Assembly (NCBI GenBank): GCA_938036155.1
Contig: CALHPA010000004.1
Span: 5,376-69,375, forward strand
Direction: 5' to 3'
DNA from: an uncultured bacterium
Lineage (GTDB): Bacteria; Patescibacteriota; Saccharimonadia; Saccharimonadales; Saccharimonadaceae
Length of the DNA stretch: 64,000 nucleotides
Shown here: piece by piece, positions 1-64,000 of the stretch
Layout: every line of letters begins with the position of its first letter
Position numbering within the stretch: position 1 is the stretch's first letter
Notes under the pieces: model-generated
Databases searched by the model: none
Told to the model about the DNA's origin: nothing
Seen by the model: the letters and a program-made list of their open reading frames with translations, nothing else
Program-made: the position numbers and the translations under genes

Positions 1-769
1 CAAAAAAAGGACGAATTAGTAAAAAAGCAATCCATAAGAATGCGGCAATTGAGATGAAGAATCCTGTAATTGTGGCAATACGAAGTGGTGCAACAGTAAA
101 ACTGGTAATTCCTTCAATTGCGAGATTAAAAAGTTTTGCATAATTCCATTTTGTTTCACCGGCTATACGGGCATTACGTTTATAAGTAATTTCTTTTTTT
201 TGAAAACCAACCCAAGAGAACATTCCTTTCGTGTAACGGTTAGATTCGCGGAGAGTTTTTAGAGCCTCAACTGCACGGCGATCGAGAAGTCGAAAGTCAC
301 CAGTGTCGCGTTGGATCTCAATTTGTGAAATTTTATCAAGTATGCTATAGAACCATTTCGAAGTTTGTTTTTTAAGCCAAGTTTCACCATCACGAGATTC
401 ACGTTTAGCATAAACGTCATCAAATCCTTCTTCCCAGAGATTGATCATTGCAGGGATTAACTCTGGTGGATCTTGTAAATCTGCGTCAATAATTACCAAT
501 GCATCTCCTTTTGCATAATCAAAACCTGCCAGCATTGCATTTTCTTTTCCAAAATTTCGGCTTAAATTGATATAGGAAATCCGTGAATCTTTTTGGCTTT
601 CATTCCTAATAATCTCCATCGTTTTGTCTTTTGAGCCATCATTAATGAAAAGAAATTCAAAATCATATTTTGAAGTATTTTTTGCTAAAAGATTAAGTCT
701 TTCGAAGAGTTTTGGCAGAGCTTTTTCTTCATTATAAGCTGGAATCATGATTGTGATGAGTTTCTTCAT
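1..769 (-). CDS. Family-2 glycosyltransferase of the polyprenol-phosphate sugar transferase type (GtrB/ArnC-like). The 3' end runs off the window.
   Basis: My translation of the minus strand from ATG 769-767 gives MKKLITIMIPAYNEEKALPKLFERL..FINDGSKDKT..NFGKENAMLAGFDYAKGDALVIIDADLQDPPELI..DTGDFRLLDRRAV. It has a GT-A DxD motif and a C-terminal TM segment. It is absent from the ORF track because there is no stop in the window. Confidence 0.8.
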   Translation of the reverse strand, partial: MKKLITIMIPAYNEEKALPKLFERLNLLAKNTSKYDFEFLFINDGSKDKTMEIIRNESQKDSRISYINLSRNFGKENAMLAGFDYAKGDALVIIDADLQDPPELIPAMINLWEEGFDDVYAKRESRDGETWLKKQTSKWFYSILDKISQIEIQRDTGDFRLLDRRAVEALKTLRESNRYTKGMFSWVGFQKKEITYKRNARIAGETKWNYAKLFNLAIEGITSFTVAPLRIATITGFFISIAAFLWIAFLLIRPFF

Positions 770-863
770 AGTAATTATATTATAGCACAAAATTACCAAA
801 AAATATAACCAAAATGTTGAAATTTTATTTGGCTTATGTTAAAATTAGTTCAGGAGAAGTAAC

Positions 864-1466
864 ATGAAAATAAACACACAAAATACCAAAAAAACTAAAA
901 CTATTATTTTTGCTATAATTATAATTTTGCTGGTCGCTGGTGCTGGTGGAATTTTCTGGTGGGCAAATTCAAATTCTCAAAAAAATAATGAGAAAAAAGA
1001 AGAAAATATCTCAAAAGTTGAAGAGAAAAAAGAAGATTCAAAAAAATCTGAAGAAACTAAAAAACAAGAAGCTGCAAAGGAAATCATTGATTCGAAAACT
1101 AAAAATACTAATACTGACCGCGCTGAAGGAACCGTTGAATCCTCGGGCTATACAAATTTTCCAACTTATACAACTGTTCAAGTTGAAGATGGTGCGGTTC
1201 GTGTTGCTGGGCAGATTTCAGGGCTTCTTTATGATGATGGAAATGGCAAATGTTCGTATACTCTAACGCATTCTGATGGAACTAAAATTGAACTTTCAAC
1301 CGAAATTTTAGAGAGTCCAAACAATAAATATTGTAAAGCAGTTTCAAAAAAAATTAGTGATAGTGAATTTAAAACTGGAAAATGGACAGCAGTAACAACT
1401 TATAAAAATTCAAAGCAAAAGCAAGAAGGAAGGTCGGATGCTCAAAGTTTTACAATCGAGAAGTAG
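864..1466 (+). CDS. Membrane-anchored hypothetical protein with a Lys/Glu-rich linker and a small 2-Cys beta-rich domain
   Basis: 200-aa ORF with an N-terminal TM (IIFAIIIILLVAGAGGIFWW) and an SD-like AGGAGAAG upstream. No family recognised. Confidence 0.5.
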   Translation: MKINTQNTKKTKTIIFAIIIILLVAGAGGIFWWANSNSQKNNEKKEENISKVEEKKEDSKKSEETKKQEAAKEIIDSKTKNTNTDRAEGTVESSGYTNFPTYTTVQVEDGAVRVAGQISGLLYDDGNGKCSYTLTHSDGTKIELSTEILESPNNKYCKAVSKKISDSEFKTGKWTAVTTYKNSKQKQEGRSDAQSFTIEK

Positions 1467-3714
1467 AGAATTTAAAAAGTCGATTTTAATCGGTGTGCCA
1501 GTTGTGGCAGTTATTGTTTTTAGCGCTCTAGCTATATTTAGAAATCTTTCTAACGCCGTTAAAGCAACTGATTTTAATCCTGGCCGAATTATCGATGATA
1601 GTATCTTTTATAATAAAGATGCAATGAATGTGTGGCAAATCCAAAGCTTTTTAAACAAGCAAATTGGTAGTTGTGATACTTGGGGTGCTGGCCCTTCTGG
1701 ACGAAATGATGGTAGGACTGCCGCTCAATTTGCTGCTGCACAAAATTCAAATTATTGGCATAAACCTCCATATGTATGTATAAATAATTACCATGAAAAC
1801 CCAAACACTGGCGAAACTTCTTTCGAAAAAGGTGGTGAATCTTTTGATGGTGGAGTTTCGGCTGCGCAGATTATTTATGATGCAGCTCAGAAATATGGAA
1901 TTAACCCACAAGTTTTATTAGTTCTACTAAAAAAAGAATCTCTTAATTTACTAGATGATAATTGGCCAGTAAAAACTCAATATAAATATGCGATGGGCTA
2001 TGCTTGCCCAGATTCTGGACCTGGATTTTCTGCTGCTTGTGCGGATTCGAAAGCTGGTTTTTATAAACAAATGACTTTGGCAGCTTGGCAGCTAAAATAT
2101 TATAAAGACCATCATAAAGATGGTGGTTATTCGCTAAAGCTTGGATGGAATAACATTCAATATTCACCAAATCCAGCTTGTGGTACAAAACGTGTTAATA
2201 TTGAGAATGTAGCAACCTTGAGTCTATATATTTATACACCGTATGTTCCAAATAATTCAGCGCTAGCAAATTATCCGGGAACTTCACATTGTGGAGCTTA
2301 TGGAAATCGTAATTTCTTTATGTTCTTTAATCAGTTATTTGGCTCGACTATTGATGATAAGGTTGAAATTGTTAAATCTAATGTGGCTTTGCCTAAAGAT
2401 TCTTATGCAGTTTCGGCTAACTCTTCGTTAAATTTAGATATTGAAAATGGCGCAATCAACTCAAATGGTGCTCGTGTTCAAATCTATACTGCAAATAGTT
2501 CTAAAGCGCAACAATTTTCATTCGAACAGACTGGCGATGGATATTACGTTATTAGAAACTTAGGATCGGGAAAAGTTCTTGATGTGGCCGGAGGAAGGAC
2601 TATTAACGGAGTTTCAGTTCAACTTTATGATTACAATGGAACTTGTGCACAAAAGTGGGCTCTAAGCAGAAAACCTAATGGAAAGATCGAGATTCTTTCT
2701 AAGTGTAATGGAAATAAAGCATTAGATATAGTTGGCGGAAATATAAATTCTTCTGGGATTAAACTTCAACTTTATAGTAGGAATGATACACCATCTCAAG
2801 AGTTTAATATTAAATCTTTATCTCAAGGCTTAAACGGAATATTTAAGATTTCGAATTTTGTATCTAATAAGGTTGTGGGTATTAAAAGTGAAGAAGCTTC
2901 TGCTCATATTACAGATTTTATCTCAAATAGTCCAATTCAACAATTTGAGATAAAAAGATATGATGGGGTGTTTTATAAAATTAAAAGTATATCTAGTGGA
3001 AGTTTTTTGGAAATAACTGAGAATGTAAATTCTAAGCAGCTACGCTTCAATAATGATAGACAAAATTCTTGTGAACAGCTTTGGTCAATTCGTGCAGATG
3101 AAAGAGGTGCTTATAAGATTCAAAATGCTTGTTCTGGAGGTTTTGTTATAGATGTTGTTAATGGTGCTATCAATACTAATGGTTCATATCTTCAAGGTTA
3201 TAGTTCCAATAATACTGATGCACAAAGATGGAAGATTGAGGATGTTAACATTATCAAGGCTTTAGACGAACAGACATCTAATAGCGATAAAATAGAAGGT
3301 AAGTATGTAGTTTCAACCATGACTACACTAGCAATGGATATAGCTAGTGGTAGAATGACCAATGGTGCAAGTCTACAAATATACAATCAAAATAAAACAC
3401 TTGCTCAAAATTTTACTATCGAAAAAACTTCAGATGATCTTTATATCATCCGTAGCGATAATGGTAAAGTAATCGATATATCTGGTGGTAGAATATCAAA
3501 TGGTACCAAGCTTCAACTTTATGATTATAATGGTACTTGTGCTCAAAAATGGAAAATTTTAAAGAGTAATAATGGATTATATGAAATTTTATCTGCTTGT
3601 GATTCTAACAAGACTATAGATGTATCTGGGGGGATGATAGGTGTGTCAGGTACTAAGTTGCAGCTATATTCAAGAAATCAGACTCTTTCTCAACAGTGGA
3701 AATTGAAACAATAG
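1438..3714 (+). CDS. Secreted or anchored protein: a conserved N-terminal wall-hydrolase-like domain plus three ricin-type beta-trefoil lectin (CBM13-like) domains
   Basis: N-terminal TM. The motif AAQIIYDAAQKYGINPQVLLVLLKKESL resembles lytic-transglycosylase/muramidase families. Three trefoil units (about 2410-2823, 2830-3240, 3296-3711) carry QxW-type motifs (AQKWAL, AQRWKIE, AQKWKIL, SQQWKLK). Confidence 0.75.
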   Translation: MLKVLQSRSREFKKSILIGVPVVAVIVFSALAIFRNLSNAVKATDFNPGRIIDDSIFYNKDAMNVWQIQSFLNKQIGSCDTWGAGPSGRNDGRTAAQFAAAQNSNYWHKPPYVCINNYHENPNTGETSFEKGGESFDGGVSAAQIIYDAAQKYGINPQVLLVLLKKESLNLLDDNWPVKTQYKYAMGYACPDSGPGFSAACADSKAGFYKQMTLAAWQLKYYKDHHKDGGYSLKLGWNNIQYSPNPACGTKRVNIENVATLSLYIYTPYVPNNSALANYPGTSHCGAYGNRNFFMFFNQLFGSTIDDKVEIVKSNVALPKDSYAVSANSSLNLDIENGAINSNGARVQIYTANSSKAQQFSFEQTGDGYYVIRNLGSGKVLDVAGGRTINGVSVQLYDYNGTCAQKWALSRKPNGKIEILSKCNGNKALDIVGGNINSSGIKLQLYSRNDTPSQEFNIKSLSQGLNGIFKISNFVSNKVVGIKSEEASAHITDFISNSPIQQFEIKRYDGVFYKIKSISSGSFLEITENVNSKQLRFNNDRQNSCEQLWSIRADERGAYKIQNACSGGFVIDVVNGAINTNGSYLQGYSSNNTDAQRWKIEDVNIIKALDEQTSNSDKIEGKYVVSTMTTLAMDIASGRMTNGASLQIYNQNKTLAQNFTIEKTSDDLYIIRSDNGKVIDISGGRISNGTKLQLYDYNGTCAQKWKILKSNNGLYEILSACDSNKTIDVSGGMIGVSGTKLQLYSRNQTLSQQWKLKQ

Positions 3715-3720
3715 TTTTTT

Positions 3721-3756: not shown

Positions 3757-3787
3757 AATAGATTAATATGGTATAATTGTAAGCATA

Positions 3788-17344: not shown

Positions 17345-18968
17345 TAAGAGCCATGAGAAATTAGCTAAAAAACCAGTTTCGAATATTCAGAATCAGCCGA
17401 AAATAGCAGAAATTAAGCATTCGAAAAAAGCTAAAAATCGAGAAGAAAATTTAAATGAAGATATTGAATCTGCTTTACAAAATTTAGAAATTGAAGAAGT
17501 TCAAGAAAATCAGCGGAAAGAACGAGTAGCTTCGAAAAAACAACAAAAACTTCTTCGAAAACTTGAAAAAAAGAATTTTAAGCGCGAGAAAAAAGGTAAA
17601 GAAGTTCTTTCTTTGGAGCAATTTAAGCGGCGCCGAATTTTGGGGCGAATTTTTGCTGTCATCTTATTGATTTTAATTATCGTTGGTGGATATTTTGCAT
17701 ATAAAGCGTATAAAGATTTGTATAAATTAACGAACGGTAACGTTATTGGCGCGGTTTTTGGTGATAAAAAGAAATTGAAGGCTGATTCTAATGGTCGTAC
17801 GAATATTTTACTTTTTGGAACCTCGCCGAAAGGTTGGGATGGTGAGAACTTGACTGATTCTGTAATGGTTATATCTGTTAATCAGGAAACCAAGAAAATT
17901 TACACTATCTCTTTACCACGAGACCTTTGGGTTAAACATACTTGCCGAAGTTGGCTTGGAACAACAGCTGGAAAACTTAATGAAACTTATGGCTGTAGCT
18001 ATTATGATGCTAAAAATAGTGGCTCAAGTGAAGAAGAATCAGAGAAGGCTGGCCAAAATGCTTTAGCTAAAAAAGCAGAAGAAATTCTTGGTTTAGATAT
18101 TCAATATGTTGTTCATGGTAATTGGAAGGTTTTAATCGATGCCATTAATTCTGTTGGTGGAATTGATGTGAAAGTTGAAGCTTACGATGGTTCAAGCCGA
18201 GTTTATGATGTAGCTACGAAAATTAACTATAAGAGTGGTGAAACTTATCATATGGATGGCGAAACAGCATTAGCATTTTCACGTGCTCGAGGCTCAGAGG
18301 GTGGAGTTGGCTTGAGCGGAAGTAATTTTGATCGTGAGCGAAATCAGCAAAAAATTTTGAAAGCAGCATTCTCTAAAATAAACGAACAAAAAACTAACCC
18401 AATAACTTTACTTTCGTTAGCTTCATCTTTGGGTGAAAATATCCACCACTCATTTAGCGGAGATGAGCTAAAAACTGCTGCTAGAATTGCTCAAGATTTT
18501 AATAGTGGATCTGTAACTTCTTTGCCACTTGTCAATGAAAATGATCAGTCTGCAAATTATTTTACAACTGGAGTGATTAATTCGGTGAGCGCAGTTTTGC
18601 CAAAAGCTGGAACTTATAATTATAGCCAAATTCAAGCTTATATTTCGAAAAATACAATTGGTGGTGATGCTACTATAGAGAATGCTAAAATTAAAATTTT
18701 AAATGGCACAAATTACTCAGGGCTAGCGGCTCAAGAACAGAAAAAACTTGAGAAAGAAGGCTTTAATATTCAAGATATTGATTCCGCTCCAAAGCGAGAT
18801 TATGCTAAAACTAAAATTTATTATGTGAAAAAAGATTCGAAAACCGCAACAATTAAAAGTCTCGAATCTAAATACTCAATCAAAGCTGAAAAATTACCAT
18901 CAGATTTATCAAAAATAGGTGAAGGTTCAGATATAATTATTTTGTTAGGTGAAGATAATGGCAATTAA
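17265..18968 (+). CDS. LytR-CpsA-Psr (LCP) family wall-polymer ligase with a C-terminal LytR_C-like domain
   Basis: A basic cytoplasmic tail, one TM segment, then the LCP core (LLFGTSPKGW..TDSVMVISVN..ISLPRDLWV..ALAFSRAR). The start is uncertain: TTG 17265 or ATG 17277. Confidence 0.85.
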   Translation: MKELMKKNQQSIDGFTPRRRVDSLSRDKSHEKLAKKPVSNIQNQPKIAEIKHSKKAKNREENLNEDIESALQNLEIEEVQENQRKERVASKKQQKLLRKLEKKNFKREKKGKEVLSLEQFKRRRILGRIFAVILLILIIVGGYFAYKAYKDLYKLTNGNVIGAVFGDKKKLKADSNGRTNILLFGTSPKGWDGENLTDSVMVISVNQETKKIYTISLPRDLWVKHTCRSWLGTTAGKLNETYGCSYYDAKNSGSSEEESEKAGQNALAKKAEEILGLDIQYVVHGNWKVLIDAINSVGGIDVKVEAYDGSSRVYDVATKINYKSGETYHMDGETALAFSRARGSEGGVGLSGSNFDRERNQQKILKAAFSKINEQKTNPITLLSLASSLGENIHHSFSGDELKTAARIAQDFNSGSVTSLPLVNENDQSANYFTTGVINSVSAVLPKAGTYNYSQIQAYISKNTIGGDATIENAKIKILNGTNYSGLAAQEQKKLEKEGFNIQDIDSAPKRDYAKTKIYYVKKDSKTATIKSLESKYSIKAEKLPSDLSKIGEGSDIIILLGEDNGN

Positions 18969-19308
18969 TTTAACTAAAAAACAAGTTGAACTATTGAATT
19001 TTATAGAAGTTTTTATTGAAGAGTCTGGTTATAGCCCAACATACCGCGAAATTGCTCGTGGTATGGGTTATAAATCCGTCGCAACGGTAGCAAAGCATAT
19101 AGATAATTTGGTTTTAATGGGAAAAATAACTAAATCTGATGGTGGTGAAGCTCGTTCGATTTCTATTAAGAAACAGATTTCAGAGCTTTCTGGTGATGAA
19201 AAAAATATTCATGATTTTTTGGTTAAGAAACGAGACTTTTATGCTGAAAATAATCAAATCGAACAAGCAAGAAAAATTGATGACGCAATTCTAACTTTGT
19301 GGTATTAG
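18958..19308 (+). CDS. LexA N-terminal winged-helix DNA-binding domain protein that lacks the S24 autopeptidase domain
   Basis: LTKKQVELLNFIEVFIEESGYSPTYREIARGMGYKSVATVAKHIDNLVLMGKI aligns with the LexA DNA-binding domain. Only about 50 further helical residues follow. ATG 18958 is preceded by AGGTGA. Confidence 0.7.
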   Translation: MAINLTKKQVELLNFIEVFIEESGYSPTYREIARGMGYKSVATVAKHIDNLVLMGKITKSDGGEARSISIKKQISELSGDEKNIHDFLVKKRDFYAENNQIEQARKIDDAILTLWY

Positions 19309-19352
19309 AATATTGAAAAAATAAAGTGTTTATGTTTTAATTATAACTAGTA

Positions 19353-20294
19353 ATGGATATTTTTAAGAGTTTTGAAAAATTTATAACAGGATTTTTAGAT
19401 TACGACTGGTTTAACCCAATTGTCATTATTTTTGCTGCAATTCTTGCAAGCTTTTTATCGCGCAAAATTATTGATTTCGCTTTTAGCGTTCGTAAAAAAA
19501 CTAAAAAAATAAAACGTTCTGAGGAGCGATTAAAGCGGAATGAAACTATTTCAAAAATTGCAAAAACTGCGATTGATATTGTTATTTGGATGACTGCAGC
19601 AATAAACTTTCTTAGCTCAATTGGTGTTAATGTGGCGTCTTTAATGACAGGCGCTGGATTAATTGGTGTTGTAGTCGGTCTTGGTGCTCAAACAACAACA
19701 CGTGATATTTTAGCAGGATTTTTTATTGTGGGTGAAAATCAATATCGAGTTGGAGATACAATTGAGATTATGGTTGCCGGAAGGCTAATTTCGGGAAAAG
19801 TTGAAAATATCTCTTTACGAATTACGCAGGTTCGTGATGGTGATGGAAAAGTTCATACAATTCGAAATGGTGCGAGTGAGGCGGTAACTAACCTTTCGTT
19901 TAAATATGCTAATGTTAATTTATTGTTCGGTGTCTCTTATGATACGGATATCGATGTTTTGGAAAAGGTGATAAATAATGTTGGGCTAAAAATGCTTGAA
20001 GATCCGGAATTAAAAAAGGATATTATTGAGCCAATTGTATTCGTGAGAGTGAATAAATTCTTGGATTCTTCGATGGAAATTAAGTGTCTAGGAAGAGTGA
20101 AGGCTGGTAAGCAATGGAACGTTGCTGGAATTTTTCGTCGGGAAATTAAGAAAGCTTTTGATGAAAACGATATTATTTTGCCTTATCCACAAATGGTCAT
20201 TCATGATGTAAATCGAATTACCGCTAAAATGAAAAATTCAAAAGCTCGCACTCGCCATCAAAAACATTCATCTATAAAACAAGTTAAAAAATAA
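19353..20294 (+). CDS. Small-conductance mechanosensitive channel (MscS family)
   Basis: Three TM segments followed by the MscS beta-domain motif (ILAGFFIVGENQYRVGDTIEI..G.VE.ISLR.T..R..DG). Confidence 0.85.
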   Translation: MDIFKSFEKFITGFLDYDWFNPIVIIFAAILASFLSRKIIDFAFSVRKKTKKIKRSEERLKRNETISKIAKTAIDIVIWMTAAINFLSSIGVNVASLMTGAGLIGVVVGLGAQTTTRDILAGFFIVGENQYRVGDTIEIMVAGRLISGKVENISLRITQVRDGDGKVHTIRNGASEAVTNLSFKYANVNLLFGVSYDTDIDVLEKVINNVGLKMLEDPELKKDIIEPIVFVRVNKFLDSSMEIKCLGRVKAGKQWNVAGIFRREIKKAFDENDIILPYPQMVIHDVNRITAKMKNSKARTRHQKHSSIKQVKK

Positions 20295-20316
20295 AACCCT
20301 TTTCGAAAGGGTTTTT
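20294..20316. terminator. Bidirectional terminator between convergent genes
   Basis: AAAACCCTTTTCGAAAGGGTTTTT is a perfect hairpin with A/T runs on both sides. Its loop is a TTCGAA site. Confidence 0.7.
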
Positions 20317-20638
20317 ATCTATAGCGGTTATTTGGACACTTGCCGTATTGCCCATTTTCACAAAATGAGCAATTTTCTTTTTCACATGCTGATAAATCAT
20401 CTGATCTATGTGCGAAAGATTGACTTTTTACGGTTTTAAAGTTTGAGTCAATTCTCTCAAAAATTATACTTTGGGCTTGAACTTTTTTGCGCGAATAGTT
20501 ACATTTGGCAAAATACATTTTAAAAATTTTATAAATTGCAGAAGAGTAGCCTTTTTCGGCTTTGATAAGTAAATCTTCTGGAATGTCTAATTCGGCTATT
20601 CGTTTTAGAAATTTGTGCGAAACTCTAATTTTTACCAT
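20315..20638 (-). CDS. Small hypothetical protein with a C-terminal Cys cluster (C-x5-C-x2-C-x7-C), transcribed divergently from arcA
   Basis: 107-aa ORF with a strong SD (GGAGGTG) 7 nt upstream of the ATG. No family recognised. Confidence 0.5.
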   Translation of the reverse strand: MVKIRVSHKFLKRIAELDIPEDLLIKAEKGYSSAIYKIFKMYFAKCNYSRKKVQAQSIIFERIDSNFKTVKSQSFAHRSDDLSACEKENCSFCENGQYGKCPNNRYR

Positions 20639-35316: not shown

Positions 35317-35408
35317 AAATTTTAAAAAAAGTTTGTTTTTAGACAGACTTTTTTATTTTTTCGAAAAAAGTACTTGACTTTTTAAGCTACCTTGTATAAC
35401 ATGGAAGT

Positions 35409-39439: not shown

Positions 39440-39514
39440 TCCGGCATAGCTCAGTGGTAGAGCGGTTGGCTGTTAACCAATAGGTCGCTGGTTCGAGCCC
39501 AGCTGCCGGAGCCA
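39440..39514 (+). tRNA. tRNA-Asn (GTT), CCA encoded
   Basis: Hand-folded cloverleaf: acceptor TCCGGCA/TGCCGGA, anticodon loop CTGTTAA, T-arm GCTGGTTCGAGCCCAGC. A TTGAAA-17-TATAAT promoter lies upstream. Confidence 0.9.
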
Positions 39515-39604: not shown

Positions 39605-40930
39605 ATGAAATTCGATAAAATTATAATTGGTTTTGGAAAAGCTGGGAAAACTTTGGCAGTTTTTGCGGCAAATAAGGGTGAAAAAGTTGCAATAATCGAG
39701 AAATCGCCAAAAATGTATGGTGGAACCTGCATTAATATTGCTTGTATTCCAACCAAAGTTTTAGCGGTTGCGGCGAGTGAAGATTTAACTTTCGAAGAAG
39801 CTATTGCGCGAAAAATTGATGTTGTACAGCGGCTAAATTCGAAAAATTATCATATGCTTGCGGATAACGATTTGATTACAGTTTTTGACGGCTTTGGTTC
39901 ATTTTTAGATGAAAATACGGTTTTAGTTGAATCAAATGGTGAAAAACTTGAGCTTTCGGCTGATAAGATTATTATTAATACTGGTGCAGAAAGTTTTATT
40001 CCTAAAATTTCAGGAATTGAAGAAGGTTTGAGTTGCTCAAAAATTTTAACCAGTACAGAGCTTCTTGATAATCAGGAAACGATTGATAATCTAGCAATTA
40101 TTGGTGGTGGGTTTATTGGCTTAGAGTTTGCTTCAACTTTTGCGAAGTTGGGTACAAAAGTAACAATTTTTGAACGAGGCGATAAAATTTTAGCTGATGA
40201 AGATGATTCAATGCAAGAAGCAATCTTTGATTTTTTAGTTTCGCAAGGTGTTAATTTTGAGTTTAACGCAAATGTTGAAGCTTTCGAAAATACTGAAAAT
40301 GGAATTTTGGTTCAAAATAATGGTAAGAAATTGGCTTTTGATAAGGTTTTAATTTCAATCGGGCGAAAGCCAGTGACTACAAAATTAAATCTTGAAAGAG
40401 TAGGAATTAAAACGCTTGAAAACGGTGGAATTTGGACTGATGAAAATCTCCAAACTTCGAATTCGAAAGTTTGGGCAGTTGGCGATGCACGTGGAAAGGA
40501 ACAATTTACCTATGCTTCCTTAGATGATTTTCGAATTTTGCGTTCACAATTTTATGGTGATGAAAAGTATTCTTTAAAAAATCGTGTTAATTTGCCAAAT
40601 TCAATTTTCTTACAGGTTCCATTTTCGAAAGTTGGATTAACTGAAAAACAAGCTTTGGAAGAAGGTTTTGAGATTAAAGTGAAGGAGATTCCAGCAGCAG
40701 CAGTACCAAAACTTCAGCTTAAATTTAAAACAACGGGGCTTTTACGGGCAATTATAGATTCAAAAACTAATAAAATTTTAGGCGCGGCTCTGTTTTGTTA
40801 TAATTCGCCAGAAGTGATAAATATCGTAAAAACTGCGATTGATGCTGGACTTGATTATACTGCTCTGCGAGATCAGATTTTTACACACCCAACTGTAGCT
40901 GAGAGCCTGAATGATTTGTTTAATCTTTAA
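39605..40930 (+). CDS. rclA: RclA/YkgC-like class I pyridine nucleotide-disulfide oxidoreductase
   Basis: IIIGFGKAGKTLAV..MYGGTCINIACIPTK (redox CxxxxC) and C-terminal LRDQIFTHPTVAESLNDLF. From memory it tracks E. coli RclA end to end, and both are 441 aa. Confidence 0.8.
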   Translation: MKFDKIIIGFGKAGKTLAVFAANKGEKVAIIEKSPKMYGGTCINIACIPTKVLAVAASEDLTFEEAIARKIDVVQRLNSKNYHMLADNDLITVFDGFGSFLDENTVLVESNGEKLELSADKIIINTGAESFIPKISGIEEGLSCSKILTSTELLDNQETIDNLAIIGGGFIGLEFASTFAKLGTKVTIFERGDKILADEDDSMQEAIFDFLVSQGVNFEFNANVEAFENTENGILVQNNGKKLAFDKVLISIGRKPVTTKLNLERVGIKTLENGGIWTDENLQTSNSKVWAVGDARGKEQFTYASLDDFRILRSQFYGDEKYSLKNRVNLPNSIFLQVPFSKVGLTEKQALEEGFEIKVKEIPAAAVPKLQLKFKTTGLLRAIIDSKTNKILGAALFCYNSPEVINIVKTAIDAGLDYTALRDQIFTHPTVAESLNDLFNL

Positions 40931-46952: not shown

Positions 46953-47028
46953 TGGTAGGGGATGCTGGGTTCGAACCAGCGACCAATCGTGTATGAGACG
47001 ACTGCTCTAACCGCTGAGCTAATCCCCC
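46953..47028 (-). tRNA. tRNA with CAT anticodon, probably tRNA-Ile2 (lysidine-modified), CCA encoded
   Basis: Hand fold: GGGGGAT..anticodon loop CTCATAC..variable TGGTC, T-stem GCTGG/CCAGC. The anticodon, variable and T regions resemble E. coli tRNA-Ile2 as I recall it. Distinguishing Met from Ile2 is inference. Confidence 0.8.
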
Positions 47029-47068
47029 GACTATTTAATTATATCAGAAAATGTGATAAAATTAAATA

Positions 47069-47509
47069 GTGAAATTAAACTTAAACGATTTAAAAACTAA
47101 AACTCGCCGTGCGAAATATTATTTTTCGAACGATATTTTGACTTTGAGTAATATTATTATGGCCAGTGTGATTTTTATTTCGATAATTTGGGTTTGGGGA
47201 AATATTGCGGCGATGGAGAAAAATTATTCAATTCAAAAAAAGATCGAACTCAAACAGCGCCAAGCTTTAATTGATGAAATTAGCTATAAAACACTCGAAT
47301 ATGAACAAAAATATCTGAAAAGCTCTGAATACCAAGAGCTTGCCGTGCGCGAAAAACTTGGTCTTGCGATGCCAGGTGAACATGTTTTGATTCTTTCGAA
47401 ATACCCAGAAGAACAAAAGAAAGAGCAAGCTGAAATTTCGAAACCTTCAAACTTTACGCAATGGATTAACTTTATTTTTGGTGGAAATGCCCAAAAATCA
47501 ATAAAATAG
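47069..47509 (+). CDS. FtsB/DivIC-like septum formation initiator
   Basis: One TM segment, a coiled coil and the motif REKLGLAMPGEHV typical of the family. GTG start 6 nt after an extended -10 box (TGATAAAAT, 47054-47062). Confidence 0.6.
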   Translation: MKLNLNDLKTKTRRAKYYFSNDILTLSNIIMASVIFISIIWVWGNIAAMEKNYSIQKKIELKQRQALIDEISYKTLEYEQKYLKSSEYQELAVREKLGLAMPGEHVLILSKYPEEQKKEQAEISKPSNFTQWINFIFGGNAQKSIK

Positions 47510-47519
47510 TTAAAATCCC

Positions 47520-47548
47520 TTGACTTTTAAATATCCGCGTGATAAAAT
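47520..47548 (+). promoter_or_regulatory. Promoter of initiator tRNA
   Basis: TTGACT, a 17-nt spacer, then TAAAAT. It ends 13 nt before the mature tRNA 5' end. Confidence 0.6.
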
Positions 47549-47561
47549 ATAAAACAGATAT

Positions 47562-47639
47562 CGCGGGATGGAGCAGTCTGGTCAGCTCGCTTGGCTCATA
47601 ACCAAGAGGTCGTAGGTTCAAATCCTACTCCCGCAACCA
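47562..47639 (+). tRNA. Initiator tRNA-fMet (CAT), CCA encoded
   Basis: CGCGGGATGGAGCAG.. with the C1xA72 mismatch and a strong resemblance to the E. coli tRNA-fMet acceptor and T arm. The anticodon stem is CTTGG/CCAAG rather than 3 G-C pairs. Confidence 0.85.
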
Positions 47640-47749
47640 AGAAATTATTTCGAAAAATAACTTTTCAAAAAATGAAAGGTTATTTTTATTTATGAAAAAT
47701 AAAATTTAAAAATCGTTACAGAATTTGCAACGATTTTTTATATAATTTC

Positions 47750-47826
47750 TGGTAGTAGCGGCAGGGATTGAACCTGCGACCTTAGGCTTATGAGTCCTAC
47801 GCTCTAACCAACTGAGCTACGCTACC
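47750..47826 (-). tRNA. tRNA with CAT anticodon, probably elongator tRNA-Met, CCA encoded
   Basis: Hand fold: GGTAGCG TA GCTCAGTTGGTTAGAGC..CTCATAA..GCAGGTTCAATCCCTGC CGCTACT A CCA. Confidence 0.8.
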
Positions 47827-54045: not shown

Positions 54046-54789
54046 ATGAATATTACACCACGACAAACGCAAATTTTGGTAGCAATCATTGAGCAATACG
54101 CTGAAGTTGCCAGCCCTGTTGGAAGTGTGACTTTAGCAAAGCTTTTTGGTGTTTCAAGTGCAACAATTCGTTCTGAAATGGCAAAACTTGAAGACTTAGG
54201 GCTAATTACGCAACCGCACACTTCTGCTGGGCGAATTCCAACTGATAAAGGTTATCGATTTTATGTGAATCGCTTAACTGCTCAAAGTGAGGGTGAAGAT
54301 GAACAAATTTTGCTAAACGCTAATAATTCGAAAGATAGTTTGCGTGGATTTCGGGCGATTTCATCACGGGTTTCAGCTCAGAATGACCGCGCTGACCATG
54401 CAATTCGTTCAGCAGTAGATTCTTTAGTTGAGCTTACAGGCAATCTTGGTCTTGCTACAATTGGCGATCAGCTCTATATTAATGGAATTTATAATCTTTT
54501 TTCTCAACCTGAATTTGAAAGTGGCGAAGCGGTGCAGTCGGTTGCGCAACTGCTTGATAATCTTGAACCGTGGCTTCGTGAAGTTACTCCAAATGAGCCG
54601 CTTAACGTTTATATCGGTAGTGAAAATCCAATTGGCAAAAGTTCTGGCGCGAGTTTGATAATTTCGAAATTCGAAAGTCCATTTTCAGAAAATTCTTACA
54701 TTGGCGTGCTCGGGCCAACTCGCCAAAATTACGGAAAAGTGGTGCGATTGGTTCAAAAAACCGGTGAATTTTTAGAAGAGATTTTATAA
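54046..54789 (+). CDS. hrcA: Heat-inducible transcription repressor HrcA (short form, 247 aa)
   Basis: RQTQILVAIIEQYAEVASPVGSVTLAKLFGVSSATIRSEMAKLEDLGLITQPHTSAGRIPTDKGYRFYV. The C-terminal GVLGPTRQNYGKV matches HrcA. Confidence 0.9.
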   Translation: MNITPRQTQILVAIIEQYAEVASPVGSVTLAKLFGVSSATIRSEMAKLEDLGLITQPHTSAGRIPTDKGYRFYVNRLTAQSEGEDEQILLNANNSKDSLRGFRAISSRVSAQNDRADHAIRSAVDSLVELTGNLGLATIGDQLYINGIYNLFSQPEFESGEAVQSVAQLLDNLEPWLREVTPNEPLNVYIGSENPIGKSSGASLIISKFESPFSENSYIGVLGPTRQNYGKVVRLVQKTGEFLEEIL

Positions 54790-54804: not shown

Positions 54805-55332
54805 ATGGAAGAAAATAATGTAGCAAAAAATCAAGATAATACAAAAGAAAAGAAGCAATCAGGATTTTTTAAAAAAGATCCAAAGTGCGAAAAGCTTCAA
54901 GCAGAGAATTCAGAATTAAAAAATGATTTGCAGCGCACGCGTGCTGATTTTGAGAATTATCGTAAAAATGTTGAAAGTCGAATTTCGAATGCGCAAAATC
55001 TAGGCGAAAAGAAAGCTATTTTGGCGTTAATTCCAATGATTGATGATATTGAAAGAGCGATTTCGCATTTGCCGTCGGATCTAGCGGAAAATTCTTGGGC
55101 GCAAAATGTGGTTAAAATGAGCAAAAATTTGGAAAAAAATCTTTCAAAGCTTGGAGTTGAAAAGATCAATTCTTCGAACGGTGCCATTTTTAATCCAGAA
55201 CTTCATGAGGCGATTCAATTCGATGAAGAATCTGACGGTGAAGAAGAAGTTATTGCTGAAGAACTTCGAGCTGGTTATACTTTAAAGGGCGAAGTTTTGC
55301 GAGCAGCAATGGTAAAAGTTGGGCGAAAGTAA
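54805..55332 (+). CDS. grpE: Nucleotide exchange factor GrpE
   Basis: RTRADFENYRKN, the GrpE C-terminal beta domain (FNPELHEA..G..L..GEVLRAAMV) and SD AAGGAGGA. Confidence 0.93.
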   Translation: MEENNVAKNQDNTKEKKQSGFFKKDPKCEKLQAENSELKNDLQRTRADFENYRKNVESRISNAQNLGEKKAILALIPMIDDIERAISHLPSDLAENSWAQNVVKMSKNLEKNLSKLGVEKINSSNGAIFNPELHEAIQFDEESDGEEEVIAEELRAGYTLKGEVLRAAMVKVGRK

Positions 55333-58407: not shown

Positions 58408-58484
58408 AACAATATAAAATAATAGCCTCATCGTTGAGACTATTATTTTTAGAAAAAAGAAAACCCCGAGCTTTATACTCGGGG

Positions 58485-58499
58485 AAACCAGATTAGTTT
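58485..58499. repeat. Left arm of the inverted repeat flanking the GC-rich island (AAACCAGATTAGTTT)
   Basis: Its reverse complement matches 59253-59267 (AAACTAATCTGATTT) at 14 of 15 positions. The 11-nt core CAGATTAGTTT is perfect. Confidence 0.55.
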
Positions 58500-58582
58500 T
58501 TTAGGAAGTTAAAGATAAAGTCCTCAACTTCCTGGTGGTCGGGGTATCCGCCCCAAAAGGCGGATTCCCTATGTTTACCAAG

Positions 58583-59125
58583 TCAGGAGCCACCGTTCCA
58601 GCCTTGGAATTTCTCTTGGAGATATGAACAGAGCTCACCATCCCTAAAGAAATTAACTTCTCCTTCGCCAGAGAGTACGATCAATTGATCGTACTCTCTA
58701 AAGAGACGGTCGGTTACTGTAGCCGTCCTGCTGTGCGTAAGACTAACTACAGTGAGGCGACCGTCAACCTTGCGGCTTTCGATCACCTCAACAGCCTAAG
58801 CTTCCTGCTCAGGCTACAACCATCCCCGGGATAAACCCGGAGTCGTTCGCAGCGATCAAAAGCTGCTTACGACTGGGCTCAATCCTCAATAGGGAAAGAA
58901 CCTGGATGATTGAGGCTGGTTCGCCGGAGCGACTACCGTGGTGGTCCACGTCAATCGCGCCGGCAATTTCGCTGGCACCAGCCAGTTCAATAAGAACTGG
59001 CTGGTCGCCTGCAGCTAGAGCAGCATCGATCTCATCTTTATAAGATTCGACCGATGCGCCCCAGCCCAGACCTTCATCTCCGCGTCTGCTCCACCAATAA
59101 AAAATACTTTTTGTGCTTGTGTCAT
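58583..59125 (-). pseudogene. Disrupted gene of foreign (GC-rich) composition, function unknown
   Basis: ATG 59125 has an AGAGGA SD. The sensible reading needs two frame changes, near 59075 and 58815, and contains an in-frame TAG (58797-58799). The pieces are MTQAQKVFFIGGADA / GLGWGASVESYKDEIDAALAAGDQPVLIELAG..IDVDHHGSRSGEP..AANDSGFIPGM / VIESRKVDGRLTVVSLTH..QGWNGGS. Local GC reaches about 65% in 58921-58980, against about 35% in the flanks. Confidence 0.6.
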
Positions 59126-59190
59126 TTTTAGTTCCTCTATTGCCGTCGGTGAGTCGTTGCTCATCTTCCGATTCGGTGAGAACTTCTGGA

Positions 59191-59242
59191 TGTTAGCCAG
59201 AAACCAAACCGTCTCGACCAATGACCTGATTTCTGGCTAACA
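59191..59242. repeat. Perfect 13-bp inverted repeat TGTTAGCCAGAAA / TTTCTGGCTAACA with a 26-nt spacer
   Basis: Read directly from the sequence. It lies upstream of the pseudogene start, inside the island. Confidence 0.55.
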
Positions 59243-59252
59243 ACCGCCACAT

Positions 59253-59267
59253 AAACTAATCTGATTT
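59253..59267. repeat. Right arm of the inverted repeat flanking the GC-rich island
   Basis: AAACTAATCTGATTT. See the left arm at 58485-58499. Confidence 0.55.
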
Positions 59268-59504: not shown

Positions 59505-59531
59505 TTAGCACTCTTGACTTGTGAGTGCTAA
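59505..59531 (+). promoter_or_regulatory. CIRCE operator overlapping the dnaK promoter
   Basis: Perfect TTAGCACTC-N9-GAGTGCTAA. The spacer holds the -35 TTGACT (59514-19), and the -10 TATAAT lies at 59537-42. A leader of about 150 nt precedes dnaK. Confidence 0.92.
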
Positions 59532-61595: not shown

Positions 61596-61621
61596 TTCGA
61601 AAATCCACCTTTCGAAAAGTA

Positions 61622-61877: not shown

Positions 61878-61996
61878 ATCTTTTTTTGATATAGTCCCTT
61901 CTTATAATATCCCTCAGCAATGGAGGGGGTTTCGACAAGGAGACGAAGGGCTAAATAGCTTTTATAAGGGTGAGCTATTTAATTGAGGATATTTAT

Positions 61997-62164: not shown

Positions 62165-62203
62165 TTTTTGATGAAAAACTGGTCGGGTGATATAATATAT
62201 GGT

Positions 62204-62524
62204 ATGGAAAGTTTTAATCAAAATAATCAAAATGAAAACAAAGAAACCGGCTGGGAAATTGCAGCGGAAGACCAACGGGCGGTGATTGAGGCACAAATTC
62301 GAATGCTTGAAGCTCAGAGGTTGGAGCTTGAAAGTCGAATGCGCGAGGAGCTTCAATATATGCGTGATGCTAATAGGGATGAAATGGATAATCAAGATAT
62401 TTATGAATCGATGAGTGGTATTTTTGAAGATAAAATGCGTGCATATGATTCGAAATTTTATGAAATTGACGTTCAGATTGATGGACTGGAATTTAAGCTA
62501 AAAAATATTGAAAATAATAATTAG
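62204..62524 (+). CDS. Acidic coiled-coil hypothetical protein
   Basis: A TATAAT box (62191-62196) lies 7 nt before ATG 62204. The stop TAG is embedded in the dnaJ CIRCE. Confidence 0.45.
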   Translation: MESFNQNNQNENKETGWEIAAEDQRAVIEAQIRMLEAQRLELESRMREELQYMRDANRDEMDNQDIYESMSGIFEDKMRAYDSKFYEIDVQIDGLEFKLKNIENNN

Positions 62525-62547
62525 CACTCTTGCACTTCAAGTGCTAA
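62521..62547 (+). promoter_or_regulatory. CIRCE operator overlapping the dnaJ promoter
   Basis: TTAGCACTC-N9-AAGTGCTAA. The spacer holds the -35 TTGCAC (62530-35), and the -10 TATAAT lies at 62553-58. Confidence 0.9.
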
Positions 62548-62565
62548 TTTGCTATAATATATTAT

Positions 62566-63666
62566 ATGAGCAAAACAGATTATTATGATATTTTAGGTGT
62601 AAAAAAAGACGCCAGTGCTGATGAAATTAAAAAGGCTTTTCGAAAAAAAGCAGTTGAGCTTCATCCAGATAAAGGGGGTGATGAAAAGGCTTTTAAAGAA
62701 GTAAATGAAGCTTATGAAGTTTTAAAAGATAAAGAAAAACGCCAACGATATGACCAATTCGGTCATGCAGGAGTTGGCGGAAATTCTGGTGGGTTTTCTG
62801 GTGGAAATCCTTTTGAAGGATTTAGCGGATTTTCGGGCCAGAATGTTAATTTTGATTTTGGTGGCGGATTTGGCGATATTTTTGACGGAATTTTTGGCGG
62901 TGGATTTTCGAATAGCCGCGGTTCGAAAACTAAAAAAGGTCGCGATGTTGAAGTAGATCTAACCTTGAATTTTAAAGAGGCAGTTTTTGGAACTGAAACT
63001 GAAATTTCATTAAATCTAGATGATGAGTGCGAGCATTGTGATGGTTCTGGTGCGGAGCCTGGCCATGGAATGCAGAAATGTCCAGACTGTAATGGAAGTG
63101 GTCAACAAACTCGTGCCACTCAAACTCTTTTTGGTCCGATTCAGCAAACTGTGACTTGTCCAACTTGTGATGGTCGGGGTGAAATTCCAAAGCAAAATTG
63201 TTCAGTTTGCCGTGGCTCTGGAATCTTGCGTAAAAAGCAAACTGTAAAGCTTAAAATTCCAGCAGGAATTGATGATGGTGCAACAATTCGGCTTTCTGGT
63301 CGTGGTGAAGCAATCAAAGGTGGTGAAAAAGGTGATTTATATGTAAACATTTATGTTAAAGCCGATAAAAAATTTACACGTGAAGGAGATTTAATTCTCA
63401 GTGAAGAGAGAATCTCAATGATCGATGCGGCCCTTGGTGCTGAAATCGAAGTTGAAACAATTGACGGTCCGTTAACGATGAAAATTCCAGCAGGAACGCA
63501 AAGTCATACTGATTTTAAGCTTTCAGGTCACGGTGTGCCTCACCTTCGAACTGAAAGAAGAGGTGCTCAAATTGTGACAATTATTGTCGAAACTCCTACA
63601 AAGCTTTCGAAAAAACAAAAAGAGCTTCTGGCGGAATTTAAGAAATCTAAAAAATCATTATTTTAA
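62566..63666 (+). CDS. dnaJ: Co-chaperone DnaJ
   Basis: J domain ([16 protein letters not shown]), a G/F region, four CxxCxGxG zinc motifs and the C-terminal substrate domains. Confidence 0.97.
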
Positions 63667-63801
63667 ATAGTTGGCCGAGTTATTTAATAGCTCGGCTATT
63701 TTATAGGAATATTAATTTTAATTCTTAATATATTGGTATGGGTGTTTTATTTTCTATAAAAATAATTTGAGCATCCTTAGAGCTTATGCTATAATATTTT
63801 C

Positions 63802-64000
63802 ATGACAACAATTATTTTTATTGTAATTCTTTTTATTTTTCTAACACTCTCTCGGCGTAAAATGGGCTATTTTAATCTTATCGTTCTCTCGGGGATTGTT
63901 TTAAATAGATATTGGAATAAAGATATTACTAATTTTTTAACAACTTCAAATTTAGTAATTCCAGAGTCAACTTTAAGCGGAATCATTGGTTTATTTCTAA
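63802..64000 (+). CDS. Membrane protein, 5' part only (runs off the window)
   Basis: Open frame MTTIIFIVILFIFLTLSRRKMGYFNLIVLSGIVLNRYW.. to the window end. An extended -10 (TGCTATAAT, 63787-63795) lies 6 nt before the ATG. Confidence 0.4.
   Translation, partial: MTTIIFIVILFIFLTLSRRKMGYFNLIVLSGIVLNRYWNKDITNFLTTSNLVIPESTLSGIIGLFL

Follow-up and report, generated by a model that had tools for sequence, protein, structure and literature searches.

The palindromic hexamer TTCGAA was found to be over-represented about 9-fold in a stretch of 64,000 nucleotides (the 64-kb window; GC 34.9%), which is part of a genome of the human oral Saccharibacteria clade G6 (Ca. Nanogingivalaceae-like). An exact count on the plus strand gave 196 copies, equal to 1 per 327 bp, against a zero-order expectation of 21.9. 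The category originally predicted for this word, a DNA-level signal of the HIP-like or uptake-sequence-like kind, is supported as the right one. TTCGAA, slightly favoured in the form TTTCGAAA, is read here as a HIP-like highly iterated palindrome of G6, the likeliest agent being an orphan TTCGAA methyltransferase, or another protein binding this word, that the clade has conserved; the probability of this reading is put at roughly 40%. No literature linking TTCGAA with Saccharibacteria was found and the G6 genome papers make no mention of methylation or restriction; the enrichment in G6 appears to be undescribed until now.

Abundance and placement of TTCGAA

Under all models applied, TTCGAA ranked first among the hexamers of the window for over-representation. 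Markov models of orders 1, 2, 3 and 4 predicted 48.9, 77.9, 103.5 and 165.9 copies, respectively, and the z-score against the maximal-order model, a check proposed together with the original prediction, was 6.7, the top value among all hexamers. The hand scan behind that prediction had given about 190 copies, close to the exact figure, and had placed the single-flank variants several-fold lower; by count these (ATCGAA 37, GTCGAA 14, CTCGAA 17, TTCGAT 25, TTCGAG 18 and TTCGAC 7) were 5-28 times rarer than TTCGAA. The accompanying claim that such enrichment is known in few cases holds in part: in about 70 unrelated loci of 20 kb, enrichment of 3-6.6x was nothing unusual for a palindromic hexamer, but none of those came near the level of TTCGAA.

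The octamer TTTCGAAA accounts for 81 of the 196 sites and is enriched 35x. T was present at position -1 in 64% of cases versus 42% before other TTC, and positions -1 and +1 alone carry extra information, with no broader consensus around the motif. An origin as a dispersed repeat or mobile element was rejected, the flanks past +/-1-2 bases having background composition only. Spacing was random and Poisson-like at short range, with 161 pairs of sites within 300 bp versus 180 expected, and neither regular spacing, clustering nor correlation with gene GC was detected within 64 kb. Over the same 64 kb no spacing regularity pointing to evenly placed marks was seen.

The 196 sites are spread over the whole window (1..64000): they lie in genes of either strand, occupy all three frames and are also present between genes. 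The positions quoted earlier for individual copies (20302, 35360, 47649, 61596 and 61611) and for close pairs (40456/40462, 34400/34407 and 54663/54670) were all correct. The copy at 20302-20307 lies at the centre of the hairpin AAAACCCTTTTCGAAAGGGTTTTT (20294..20318), where it forms the apex (AAACCCTTT-TCGA-AAAGGGTTT); the flanking genes are convergent and, based on the sequence and the gene ends, the hairpin looks like a bidirectional terminator. Intergenic copies include the pair at 61596 and 61611 (61596..61616), immediately 3' of the dnaK stop codon, and a single copy upstream of a padR-like gene (35360..35365). The head-to-tail pair TTCGAATTCGAA (40456..40467) is located within a pyridine nucleotide-disulphide oxidoreductase gene. 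Further pairs are those of 34400/34407 and 54663/54670, and close pairs are about as numerous as a Poisson distribution predicts. One copy falls within a tRNA-Met gene on the minus strand (46970..46975). From its position we take this to be, in all probability, the conserved T-arm sequence, and it would then be an ordinary RNA-constrained occurrence outside the excess.

A GC-rich island on the minus strand (58452..59267) is read as a decayed gene on the basis of its fragmented reading frames (34-68 aa, in differing frames), and a search of it against Rfam returned no family above threshold. It had been described as free of TTCGAA, and indeed no site lies between 57784 and 59400, the second-longest motif-free stretch of the window, in which it sits. 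Only about 0.2 copies would be expected at its length and GC, and its lack of TTCGAA therefore says little.

Codon context and intergenic DNA

Two outcomes had been named that would reduce the signal to a codon artefact: loss of the excess in shuffles preserving protein and codon usage, and no excess in intergenic DNA. Neither was observed. Synonymous-codon shuffling gave 54.6±6.4 expected copies versus 181 observed in genes (z=19.6), and 0/18 one-mismatch neighbours of TTCGAA were enriched by the same measure. All three codon phases are used, as had been claimed, the genes of the plus strand holding 92 copies as xxT-TCG-AAx, 45 as xTT-CGA-Axx and 35 as TTC-GAA. Codon choice depends on completion of the hexamer. 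TCG made up 57% of Ser codons in the T_AA context versus 12-19% in other contexts, CGA 73% of Arg codons where TTCGAA results versus 15-41% otherwise, and TTC 49% of Phe codons preceding GAA versus 17% in other places, while in the window genes TTC-GAG was found 0 times versus 12 for TTT-GAG.

The intergenic count, made after refinement of the annotation, gave 11 copies in 5,444 bp versus 1.8 expected (zero order) or 3.0-3.5 (Markov orders 1-2; P<=9e-4), an enrichment of 3-6x; the presence of the motif both in genes of either strand and in non-coding DNA was thereby borne out. The sites at 357 and 701 are within a minus-strand gene which continues past the window start, and are therefore not non-coding.

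Distribution among Saccharibacteria

Comparison with related genomes, also proposed as a check, revealed the enrichment to be clade-wide in the G6 lineages compared. Nucleotide identity to the window was 92% for L001 and L081-L090, 88.8% for L099/L100, 83.5% for L097/L098 and 82% for L095/L096. In all G6 lineages compared, down to 81% identity, the observed/expected ratio (O/E) of TTCGAA was 9-12 at about 35% GC, and in the flanks of the window itself the enrichment was 8.6-9.1x. In 23 other Saccharibacteria loci (UvrA <=75% identical) it was 0-2.5x, and the other families of Saccharibacteria thus lack the signal. A small mobile element without transfer genes, located at tRNA-Asn in G6 strains and absent from the window, carries TTCGAA at 6.7-7x. 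A metagenome scan for clustered TTCGAA added one fragment of a G6-like contig (L341); no other lineage clearly showed the hexamer-specific signature. Phages were rejected as a probe of mechanism: the Dp-1/MS1 pneumophage family and a 107-kb phage are rich in sites, but their excess belongs to TCGA generally and not to the hexamer, which makes them uninformative on the mechanism in G6.

Conservation and turnover of sites

Of the sites permissive in both genomes of a pair, 45-64% were occupied by TTCGAA, and about 55-60% of the places at which the protein sequence permits the motif have it. The probability of a site in the second genome given a site in the first held steady (0.75-0.82) over divergences of 8% to 19%, and the probability given absence in the first climbed with divergence from 0.09 to 0.36. 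At 82.5% nucleotide identity 64-67% of TTCGAA sites were shared, versus 36% for all hexamers. All six motif positions are maintained at silent sites, based on the window-L097 comparison, in which 4-fold identity was 0.575. The outer T was kept in 38/39 cases versus 77% in controls (p=0.0013); conservation was 77-81% versus 47-50% for the G of TCG, 56-75% versus 28-32% for the C of TTC, 94-100% versus 66% for CGA, and 94-100% versus 84% for GAA.

Turnover of sites proceeded mainly via TTCAAA and TTTGAA (C<->T or G<->A in the central CpG). On two short branches CpG was lost in 6/92 cases in the motif versus 69/499 elsewhere, about half the rate, and gains were 1/68 versus 76/2358, events too few to rank reduced loss against increased gain. 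On the short branches 9 losses of TTCGAA were seen versus 3 gains, a difference which is not significant and shows no active creation. The pressure on TTCGAA is strong enough to change dipeptide usage: FE stood at 1.18-1.33 in G6 proteins versus 0.80 in non-G6, and S[KN] at 1.09-1.25 versus 0.84, with control dipeptides the same in both. The original prediction had attributed the motif to selection at the DNA level. Its DNA-level part stands, on the codon shuffle, the intergenic excess, the clade-wide occurrence and the silent-site conservation; as to selection, the conservation data fit it as well as a repair or recombination bias re-creating lost sites, and cannot separate it from biased repair or drive.

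Nature of the agent

According to the methyltransferase reading, changes completing the hexamer would be retained, and those breaking it lost or reverted, wherever the protein permits and in intergenic DNA. Such retention and reversion would keep about 55-60% of permissive sites filled in each lineage while single sites turn over. Since TTCGAA reads as a perfect palindrome of 6 bp and is among the known type II recognition sequences, the agent would most likely be a clade-conserved protein that acts symmetrically at a specific DNA sequence. The preferred candidate would be an orphan TTCGAA methyltransferase without a partner nuclease, and the enrichment might arise either from a methyl mark that is useful when dense or, along the lines of the model that Elhai put forward for HIPs, from a bias of methyl-directed repair. 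Cognate methyltransferases are found together with HIPs, whose "exceptional" forms have appeared here and there in individual lineages (PMC4390886). A natural TTCGAA with modified adenine (TTCGA*A) is known from a thermophile MAG (bioRxiv 10.64898/2026.06.24.734251).

Within the window GATC had the lowest O/E of any tetramer against the Markov model (0.53), and CCGG, the site of a HpaII-type system carried on the mobile element of one strain, was at 0.70-0.76. GATC is a common restriction-enzyme site and is usually avoided. That GATC and CCGG are avoided while TTCGAA is enriched 9x argues for an orphan, non-cutting agent. Searches with Pfam or NCBIfam on 50 window ORFs, together with precomputed Pfam for the 20 kb flanks, identified no DNA methyltransferase, restriction enzyme or nuclease, Vsr or MutH-like protein in the window and flanks (about 84 kb, or about 13% of a genome of about 660 kb). 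The sole methyltransferases seen belong to the tRNA-Asn element, whose cargo differs from strain to strain and which the window lacks.

The main alternative, possible though on the whole unlikely, is that the competence machine of G6 prefers TTCGAA or TTTCGAAA and that recombination of imported conspecific DNA raises its density. Own-kind DNA would be imported and recombined, and about 55-60% of permissive sites would owe their present form to molecular drive, which would also have altered protein composition. That TTCGAA/TTTCGAAA is in this sense a palindromic signal for uptake or self-recognition, the first in the Patescibacteria (CPR), to which the competence machinery and type IV pili of G6 respond, seems doubtful to us. 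Natural competence has been reported in Saccharibacteria (PMC10633639 and its preprint), although it was demonstrated in a different family and G6 is uncultured, and G6 genomes were reported to have a type IV pilus system (PMC8386444). A ComEC homologue (PF03772) was identified about 8 kb past the window end (L091 17922-19367). The density of the hexamer (1 per 0.33 kb) and of the octamer (1 per 0.79 kb) is of the same order as that of USS and DUS, roughly one per kb. The word is found in all frames, also in intergenic DNA and once within a terminator hairpin, and it is confined to one clade, as DUS dialects are. USS are described as altering protein sequences, and the proteome shift by TTCGAA parallels this. 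The small tRNA-Asn element, without transfer genes, is likewise dense in sites, and the mosaic similarity among G6 lineages, with L099 resembling L082 more than it does the window, suggests recombination. Known uptake sequences, however, are asymmetric words of 9-12 bases, compared with which a 6-bp perfect palindrome has low specificity. Across 8 strains of one lineage variants were nearly all singletons and hence uninformative. In 21 HMT-870-like strains a first pass gave allele frequencies of 0.61 for motif-creating versus 0.25 for motif-destroying changes (p=0.019), with 2/6 creating events mis-polarised; with strict outgroup agreement (n=11 and 2) this difference was gone, and the frequencies speak neither for nor against drive or another fixation bias.

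An abundant architectural or nucleoid-associated protein binding TTCGAA, with selection for many dispersed sites, is improbable. HIP1 sites are conserved above background, which was read as selection with a role in chromosome structure (Xu et al. 2018, PMC5861425), and the conservation of TTCGAA resembles that result. A dimeric binder would fit a palindrome, and the density of sites is uniform over genes with no link to GC. Against such a protein are the lack of periodic or regular spacing within 64 kb, the lack of a candidate, and the density shared by the mobile element, which a chromosome-specific function does not need.

Very-short-patch (VSP) repair alone, in which a C5-methyltransferase and a Vsr-like nuclease turn T:G mismatches of TTTGAA and TTCAAA back to TTCGAA, is very improbable. 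It would fit the gains and losses running chiefly via these two words and the halved loss of the motif CpG, but the donor words are undepleted (TTTGAA 1.04 and TTCAAA 1.26 of shuffle expectation) and outer positions beyond VSP repair are also conserved (38/39 versus 77%; GAA 94-100% versus 84%), and the VSP-only model was rejected on these two grounds. Furthermore, neither Vsr nor C5 methyltransferase was detected in the core region examined (about 84 kb), and the only reported natural modification of TTCGAA found in the literature searched is of adenine. A purely translational origin (codon usage, a bias in the codon pairs TCG-AAA, CGA-A and TTC-GAA, or amino-acid composition) is scarcely credible and was rejected, since the 88% coding content, the fairly common codons TCG and CGA and the unequal phases (92/45/35) are outweighed by z=19.6 against protein- and codon-usage-preserving shuffles, the preference for one and the same word in each of three frames, with a different codon set in each, the 3-6x intergenic excess and the unenriched one-mismatch neighbours.

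Significance

HIP1-like palindromes have been unexplained for decades, the well-known examples being largely cyanobacterial, and TTCGAA in G6 provides a second strong, clean case in an unrelated phylum. With a genome of about 660 kb and about 690 genes, the question becomes much more tractable, as few candidate proteins have to be considered. Hundreds of natural strains have been sequenced, complete G6 genomes exist (CP072208, CP076101 and CP076102), and Nanopore reads of the G6 strains JB001-JB003 are public (e.g. SRX10387815; PMC8354532), from which methylation of the motif is readable. TTCGAA is also a strong signature by which contigs of G6 can be told apart in metagenomes of the mouth. 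BstBI/SfuI would cut G6 DNA to pieces if its sites carry no modification and would spare it if they do, which in the latter case is useful for enrichment. An uptake signal, if true, would bear on DNA acquisition by ultrasmall epibionts and on their genetic tractability.

Comparison with known systems

In E. coli Dcm/Vsr, CCWGG is over- and CTWGG under-represented, the effect being small. Repair there makes the methyltransferase site from the deamination product, and TTCGAA likewise turns over via CpG transition products. In TTCGAA, however, the donor words are undepleted and non-CpG positions are also maintained, a pattern different from VSP repair, in which deamination words are depleted and the methylated C alone is driven.

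Targets of restriction systems are, as a general rule, avoided. TTCGAA is identical to the BstBI/AsuII/SfuI-type restriction-modification target, the SfuI site being given as TTCGAA (PMC4190663), yet it is 9x over-represented where such a target is under-represented. No restriction-modification system was found in the 84 kb.

DUS of Neisseria and USS of Pasteurellaceae resemble TTCGAA in their density (about 1 per 0.3-1 kb), in their presence in all frames, in intergenic DNA and in terminators, in their restriction to one clade and in a measurable effect on proteins; natural competence has been shown in the phylum for other Saccharibacteria, and comEC is nearby. Clade-confined over-representation at about 1 per kb is shared with them, whereas DUS and USS lack symmetry and span 9-12 bases, TTCGAA being a palindromic hexamer.

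HIP1 (GCGATCGC) and the "exceptional" HIPs are short perfect palindromes which are hyper-abundant within and between genes and lineage-specific (PMC4390886; PMC5861425). HIP1 itself is GC-rich, 8 bp long, enriched 15-300x and hosted by a cyanobacterium, whereas TTCGAA is AT-rich, 6 bp long, enriched 9x (octamer 35x) and hosted by an ultrasmall Patescibacteria epibiont with a genome of about 0.66 Mb. HIP1 proper is excluded, the word being TTCGAA and not GCGATCGC and the organism a Saccharibacterium. The distribution of HIP1 is periodic at 10-90 kb (Xu et al. 2018, PMC5861425). A cognate methyltransferase, often an orphan, ties the HIPs together (Elhai 2015, PMC4390886); in the window and flanks (about 84 kb) none was found for TTCGAA. 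The "exceptional" HIPs are, like TTCGAA, restriction-type palindromes appearing in single lineages, and HIP sites are conserved beyond background between related genomes. TTCGAA shares with HIPs that it is an over-represented palindrome, independent of frame in and between genes and conserved between relatives.

Abundance and hexamer specificity

Based on base composition (64,000 bp, 34.9% GC), 21.9 copies of TTCGAA were expected in the window and 196 were observed, a 9.0-fold excess which placed it first among the 4,096 hexamers by observed/expected ratio. The original prediction, from a hand count, had been about 190, and the coordinates quoted with it were all correct on recheck. Lower-order Markov models predicted 48.9, 77.9 and 103.5 copies. 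The maximal-order model, a check suggested earlier and run here on the window, rests on pentamers dominated by TTCGAA itself; it predicted 165.9 copies (z = 6.7), with TTCGAA again the top hexamer.

The six single-flank variants were present in 7-37 copies each and half of the TCGA tetramers in the window were TTCGAA; the signal is therefore, as had been proposed, a property of the hexamer rather than of TCGA or CpG. The frequent extension described earlier was recovered as a weak outward preference: T preceded 64% of TTCGAA compared with 42% of other TTC, and the octamer TTTCGAAA occurred 81 times. Spacing was Poisson-like (CV 0.90 vs. 0.99±0.07 under the null; KS p=0.25), with a variance/mean of 0.94 in 2-kb bins and a longest gap of 1.8 kb. 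Density showed no correlation with gene GC among the genes of the window.

Coding and intergenic DNA

Fifty-four genes were called, covering 87-88% of the window. All three codon phases were occupied in plus-strand genes, in agreement with the earlier reading (xxT-TCG-AAx 92, xTT-CGA-Axx 45, TTC-GAA 35), and synonymous codon choice was tied to completion of the motif. The Ser codon TCG was used in 57% of cases in the T_AA context (12-19% elsewhere), the Arg codon CGA in 73% where it completed TTCGAA (15-41% elsewhere) and the Phe codon TTC in 49% before GAA (17% elsewhere); TTC-GAG was absent while TTT-GAG occurred 12 times. Synonymous-codon shuffling, which leaves all proteins and total codon usage unchanged, gave 54.6±6.4 copies compared with 181 observed (z=19.6), and enrichment was found in 0/18 one-mismatch neighbours. 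After refinement of the annotation with gene calls of matching public contigs, 11 copies were counted in 5,444 bp of intergenic DNA, where 1.8 (zero order) or 3.0-3.5 (Markov orders 1-2) were expected (P<=9e-4). The original prediction of a DNA-level signal, extending outside genes, had named disappearance of the excess in such shuffles and between genes as the mark of a codon artefact; because the excess persisted in both, a translational origin is refuted.

Phylogenetic extent

UvrA placed the window in the Saccharibacteria, and the window is identical to part of a 293-kb human oral metagenomic contig. Judging by the source names of close homologues, the organism is assigned to Candidatus Nanogingivalaceae, clade G6 / HMT-870, whose complete genomes are ~640-690 kb with 36.4% GC (PMC8354532, PMC9600527). 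The UvrA/ABC-transporter region was compared among G6 lineages that match the window at 92%, 88.8%, 83.5% and 82% of nucleotides. Each of the four had ~35% GC and TTCGAA observed/expected ratios of 9-12, and the window's own flanks showed 8.6-9.1x. In 23 loci from other Saccharibacteria families (UvrA <=75% identical, GC 38-52%) the ratio was 0-2.5x. This comparison with related genomes, which had been recommended, thus identifies the enrichment as old, common to the clade and missing in its relatives.

The strongest palindromic hexamer in each of ~70 unrelated bacterial loci (~20 kb each) reached 3-6.6x, part or all of which was accounted for by low-order Markov models; TTCGAA in G6 was the clear extreme (7e-41 vs. 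7e-18 for the next locus). In unrelated bacteria (L048, L062, L073 and others), TCGCGA was at 5.9x in a Clostridia MAG and TTGCAA at 5.7x in Clostridium sp. CAG:138, while several Clostridia/Oscillospiraceae MAGs had AAGCTT at 4-5x. Milder biases resembling highly iterated palindromes (HIPs) may be widespread.

Maintenance of sites

Permissive sites were defined as those where the amino acids of both compared genomes allow TTCGAA. Between 45 and 64% of them were occupied in every G6 lineage. When one genome carried the motif at a site, the second did so with a probability of 0.75-0.82, at 8% and 19% divergence alike, and the probability that an empty site was filled in the other genome climbed from 0.09 to 0.36 with distance. 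The alternative at differing sites was mostly TTCAAA or TTTGAA, a transition at the CpG. On two polarisable short branches few gains were seen, and CpG loss affected 6/92 branch-sites in the motif and 69/499 for CpGs elsewhere; the motif CpG is thus not hypermutable, which fits adenine methylation or none better than unrepaired C5-methylation.

Silent positions were examined between the window and the 83.5% identical lineage (4-fold-site identity 0.575, amino-acid identity 0.885). The outer T was kept in 38/39 cases (77% in matched controls, p=0.0013), the G of TCG in 77-81% (47-50%), the C of TTC in 56-75% (28-32%), the A of GAA in 94-100% (84%) and CGA in 94-100% (66%). Since silent positions exceeded their controls throughout the motif, all six positions are maintained, beyond the CpG alone. 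Taking the context-dependent codon frequencies as equilibrium odds gave odds ratios of ~5-8, from which we infer, under that assumption, a population-scaled bias of ~1.5-2, on a par with strong codon bias.

The pressure extends to protein composition, since the motif-compatible dipeptides FE (1.18-1.33 in G6 vs. 0.80 in other Saccharibacteria) and S[KN] (1.09-1.25 vs. 0.84) were relatively enriched and control or reversed dipeptides showed no shift between the same groups. Conservation evidence of the same kind served Xu et al. for selection on HIP1 (PMC5861425); a bias re-creating lost sites would be expected to give a similar pattern. The outcome of a fixation-bias test on allele frequencies in 21 strains changed with polarisation.

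Mobile elements and other features

Several G6 lineages include strains with an integrative element beside tRNA-Asn (window 39440-39514; element at L083 18058-22811, L096 12120-18499, L429 12120-20687, L432 12120-16648). Besides a serine recombinase, a Phage_CRI-type replication protein, and proteins of the SpoVG-like and HTH kinds, it encodes restriction-modification cargo that varies with the strain. This cargo can be a C5-methylase/Eco57I-type fusion, a C5 methylase with an HpaII-type nuclease, or an MmeI-type enzyme; elsewhere there are only remnants. The element resembles a vehicle for moving defence genes. TTCGAA was enriched 6.7-7x within the element as well (31% GC), so the force acts on any DNA that has been in G6 cells for long. 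A different insertion upstream of uvrA in one HMT-870-like strain (L428 1-3769; RecT, FtsK/PD-(D/E)XK fusion, small ORFs) is probably another mobile element.

The GC-rich (~50%) island at 58452-59267 (minus strand), between csbD-like and dnaK genes, contains disrupted minus-strand reading frames (34-68 aa) that lie in different frames, and is ended by a terminator-like hairpin at ~58459-58485. No Rfam family matched it; it is probably a decayed gene and may be foreign in origin. A perfect CIRCE operator (TTAGCACTC-N9-GAGTGCTAA, 59505-59531) lies upstream of dnaK and, with the repressor gene hrcA (54046-54789) and grpE (54805-55332), forms an ordinary heat-shock regulon layout. Three tRNA-Met(CAT) genes were located within 900 bp (46953-47826), on alternating strands (-, +, -).

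Phages with TTCGAA or TCGA bias

Viral contigs were scanned for clustered TTCGAA. The lytic Streptococcus pneumoniae phages Dp-1 (NC_015274; L300) and MS1 and many human-associated metagenomic relatives (L221-L260) had TTCGAA at 4-11x. TCGA occurred 473 times in 50 kb (~2.6x), all NTCGAN hexamers were at 3.7-5.8x and GATC was almost missing (8 in 50 kb). The excess is general to TCGA rather than particular to the hexamer. A sister group (81-82% terminase identity) had TTCGAA at only 1.3-3.2x. Dp-1 possesses 7-deazaguanine genes and carries dPreQ1 in place of 1.7% of its G (PMC6884629); TCGA is a possible target of this modification. A 107-kb phage with a T4-type baseplate hub and 35% GC (IMGVR_UViG_3300044959_000303; L299/L111) had 69 TTCGAA in 21 kb (9.6x) and TCGA at 4.7x, again TCGA-wide rather than hexamer-specific. 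Distant Dp-1 terminase relatives (L266, L267, L269, L275, L277-L279; 49-54% identity), which have temperate Streptococcus and Bacillus phages among their nearest isolates, had 0 TTCGAA where ~7 were expected per 21 kb, a clear avoidance which suggests TTCGAA-cutting systems in their hosts. These phage biases are phenomena separate from the G6 hexamer.

Candidate agents and comparison with known systems

TTCGAA is a perfect 6-bp palindrome and the BstBI/AsuII recognition sequence; GATC is a common restriction-enzyme target. GATC was the most under-represented tetramer in the window (110 observed; 0.53 of composition, 0.55 of order-2 Markov), GTAC and CATG were also low, and CCGG, target of the HpaII-type system on the tRNA-Asn element of one G6 strain, was at 0.70-0.76. 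Such depletion is what restriction pressure commonly leaves behind, and TTCGAA behaves in the opposite way. From the avoidance of GATC and CCGG in the same window it follows that the reader of TTCGAA is unlikely to cut it. SfuI also recognizes TTCGAA (PMC4190663), and adenine-modified TTCGA*A is on record from a metagenome-assembled genome (bioRxiv 10.64898/2026.06.24.734251). Neither a DNA methyltransferase or restriction enzyme nor a Vsr or MutH-like protein was encoded in the window plus 10 kb on each side (~13% of a G6 genome).

The enrichment in G6 is real, strong and clade-wide. The leading explanation, with a probability of roughly 40%, is that TTCGAA is a HIP-like palindrome, a preferred DNA state that would be kept by a clade-conserved, symmetric DNA-recognising protein, likeliest a putative orphan TTCGAA methyltransferase. 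Sites might be enriched either through the usefulness of a dense mark or, along the lines of Elhai's ratchet (PMC4390886), by a methyl-directed bias in repair.

The main rival, a signal for uptake or self-recognition that transformation would drive, is a less probable but serious reading. Density, clade specificity and the proteome effect fit it, as does the competence background: natural competence is known from another Saccharibacteria family (PMC10633639), G6 genomes are reported to encode a type IV pilus system (PMC8386444), and a 481-aa ComEC-type channel protein (DUF4131 + PF03772) is encoded ~8 kb past the window end (17922-19367 of the flank-covering locus L091). The short palindromic form does not fit. 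An architectural binding site, as Xu et al. propose for HIP1 (PMC5861425), is unlikely. Generation of the excess by very-short-patch repair alone is contradicted, and very improbable, as donor words were not depleted and the outer motif positions were conserved as well.

No pairing of TTCGAA with Saccharibacteria was found among the papers searched, and the three G6 genome papers make no mention of methylation or restriction (PMC8354532, PMC9600527, PMC8386444); the case is directly testable, as Nanopore data and complete genomes exist. The uptake sequences of Neisseria (DUS) and Pasteurellaceae (USS) are like G6 TTCGAA in density, distribution and proteome effects but are asymmetric 9-12-mers, not palindromic hexamers. 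The defining link of HIPs is to a cognate methyltransferase, which in G6 would be the putative orphan enzyme. HIP1 differs in word, phylum and size of enrichment. Closest in behaviour are HIP1 and especially the "exceptional" HIPs, restriction-type palindromes that are hyper-abundant in single lineages (PMC4390886).
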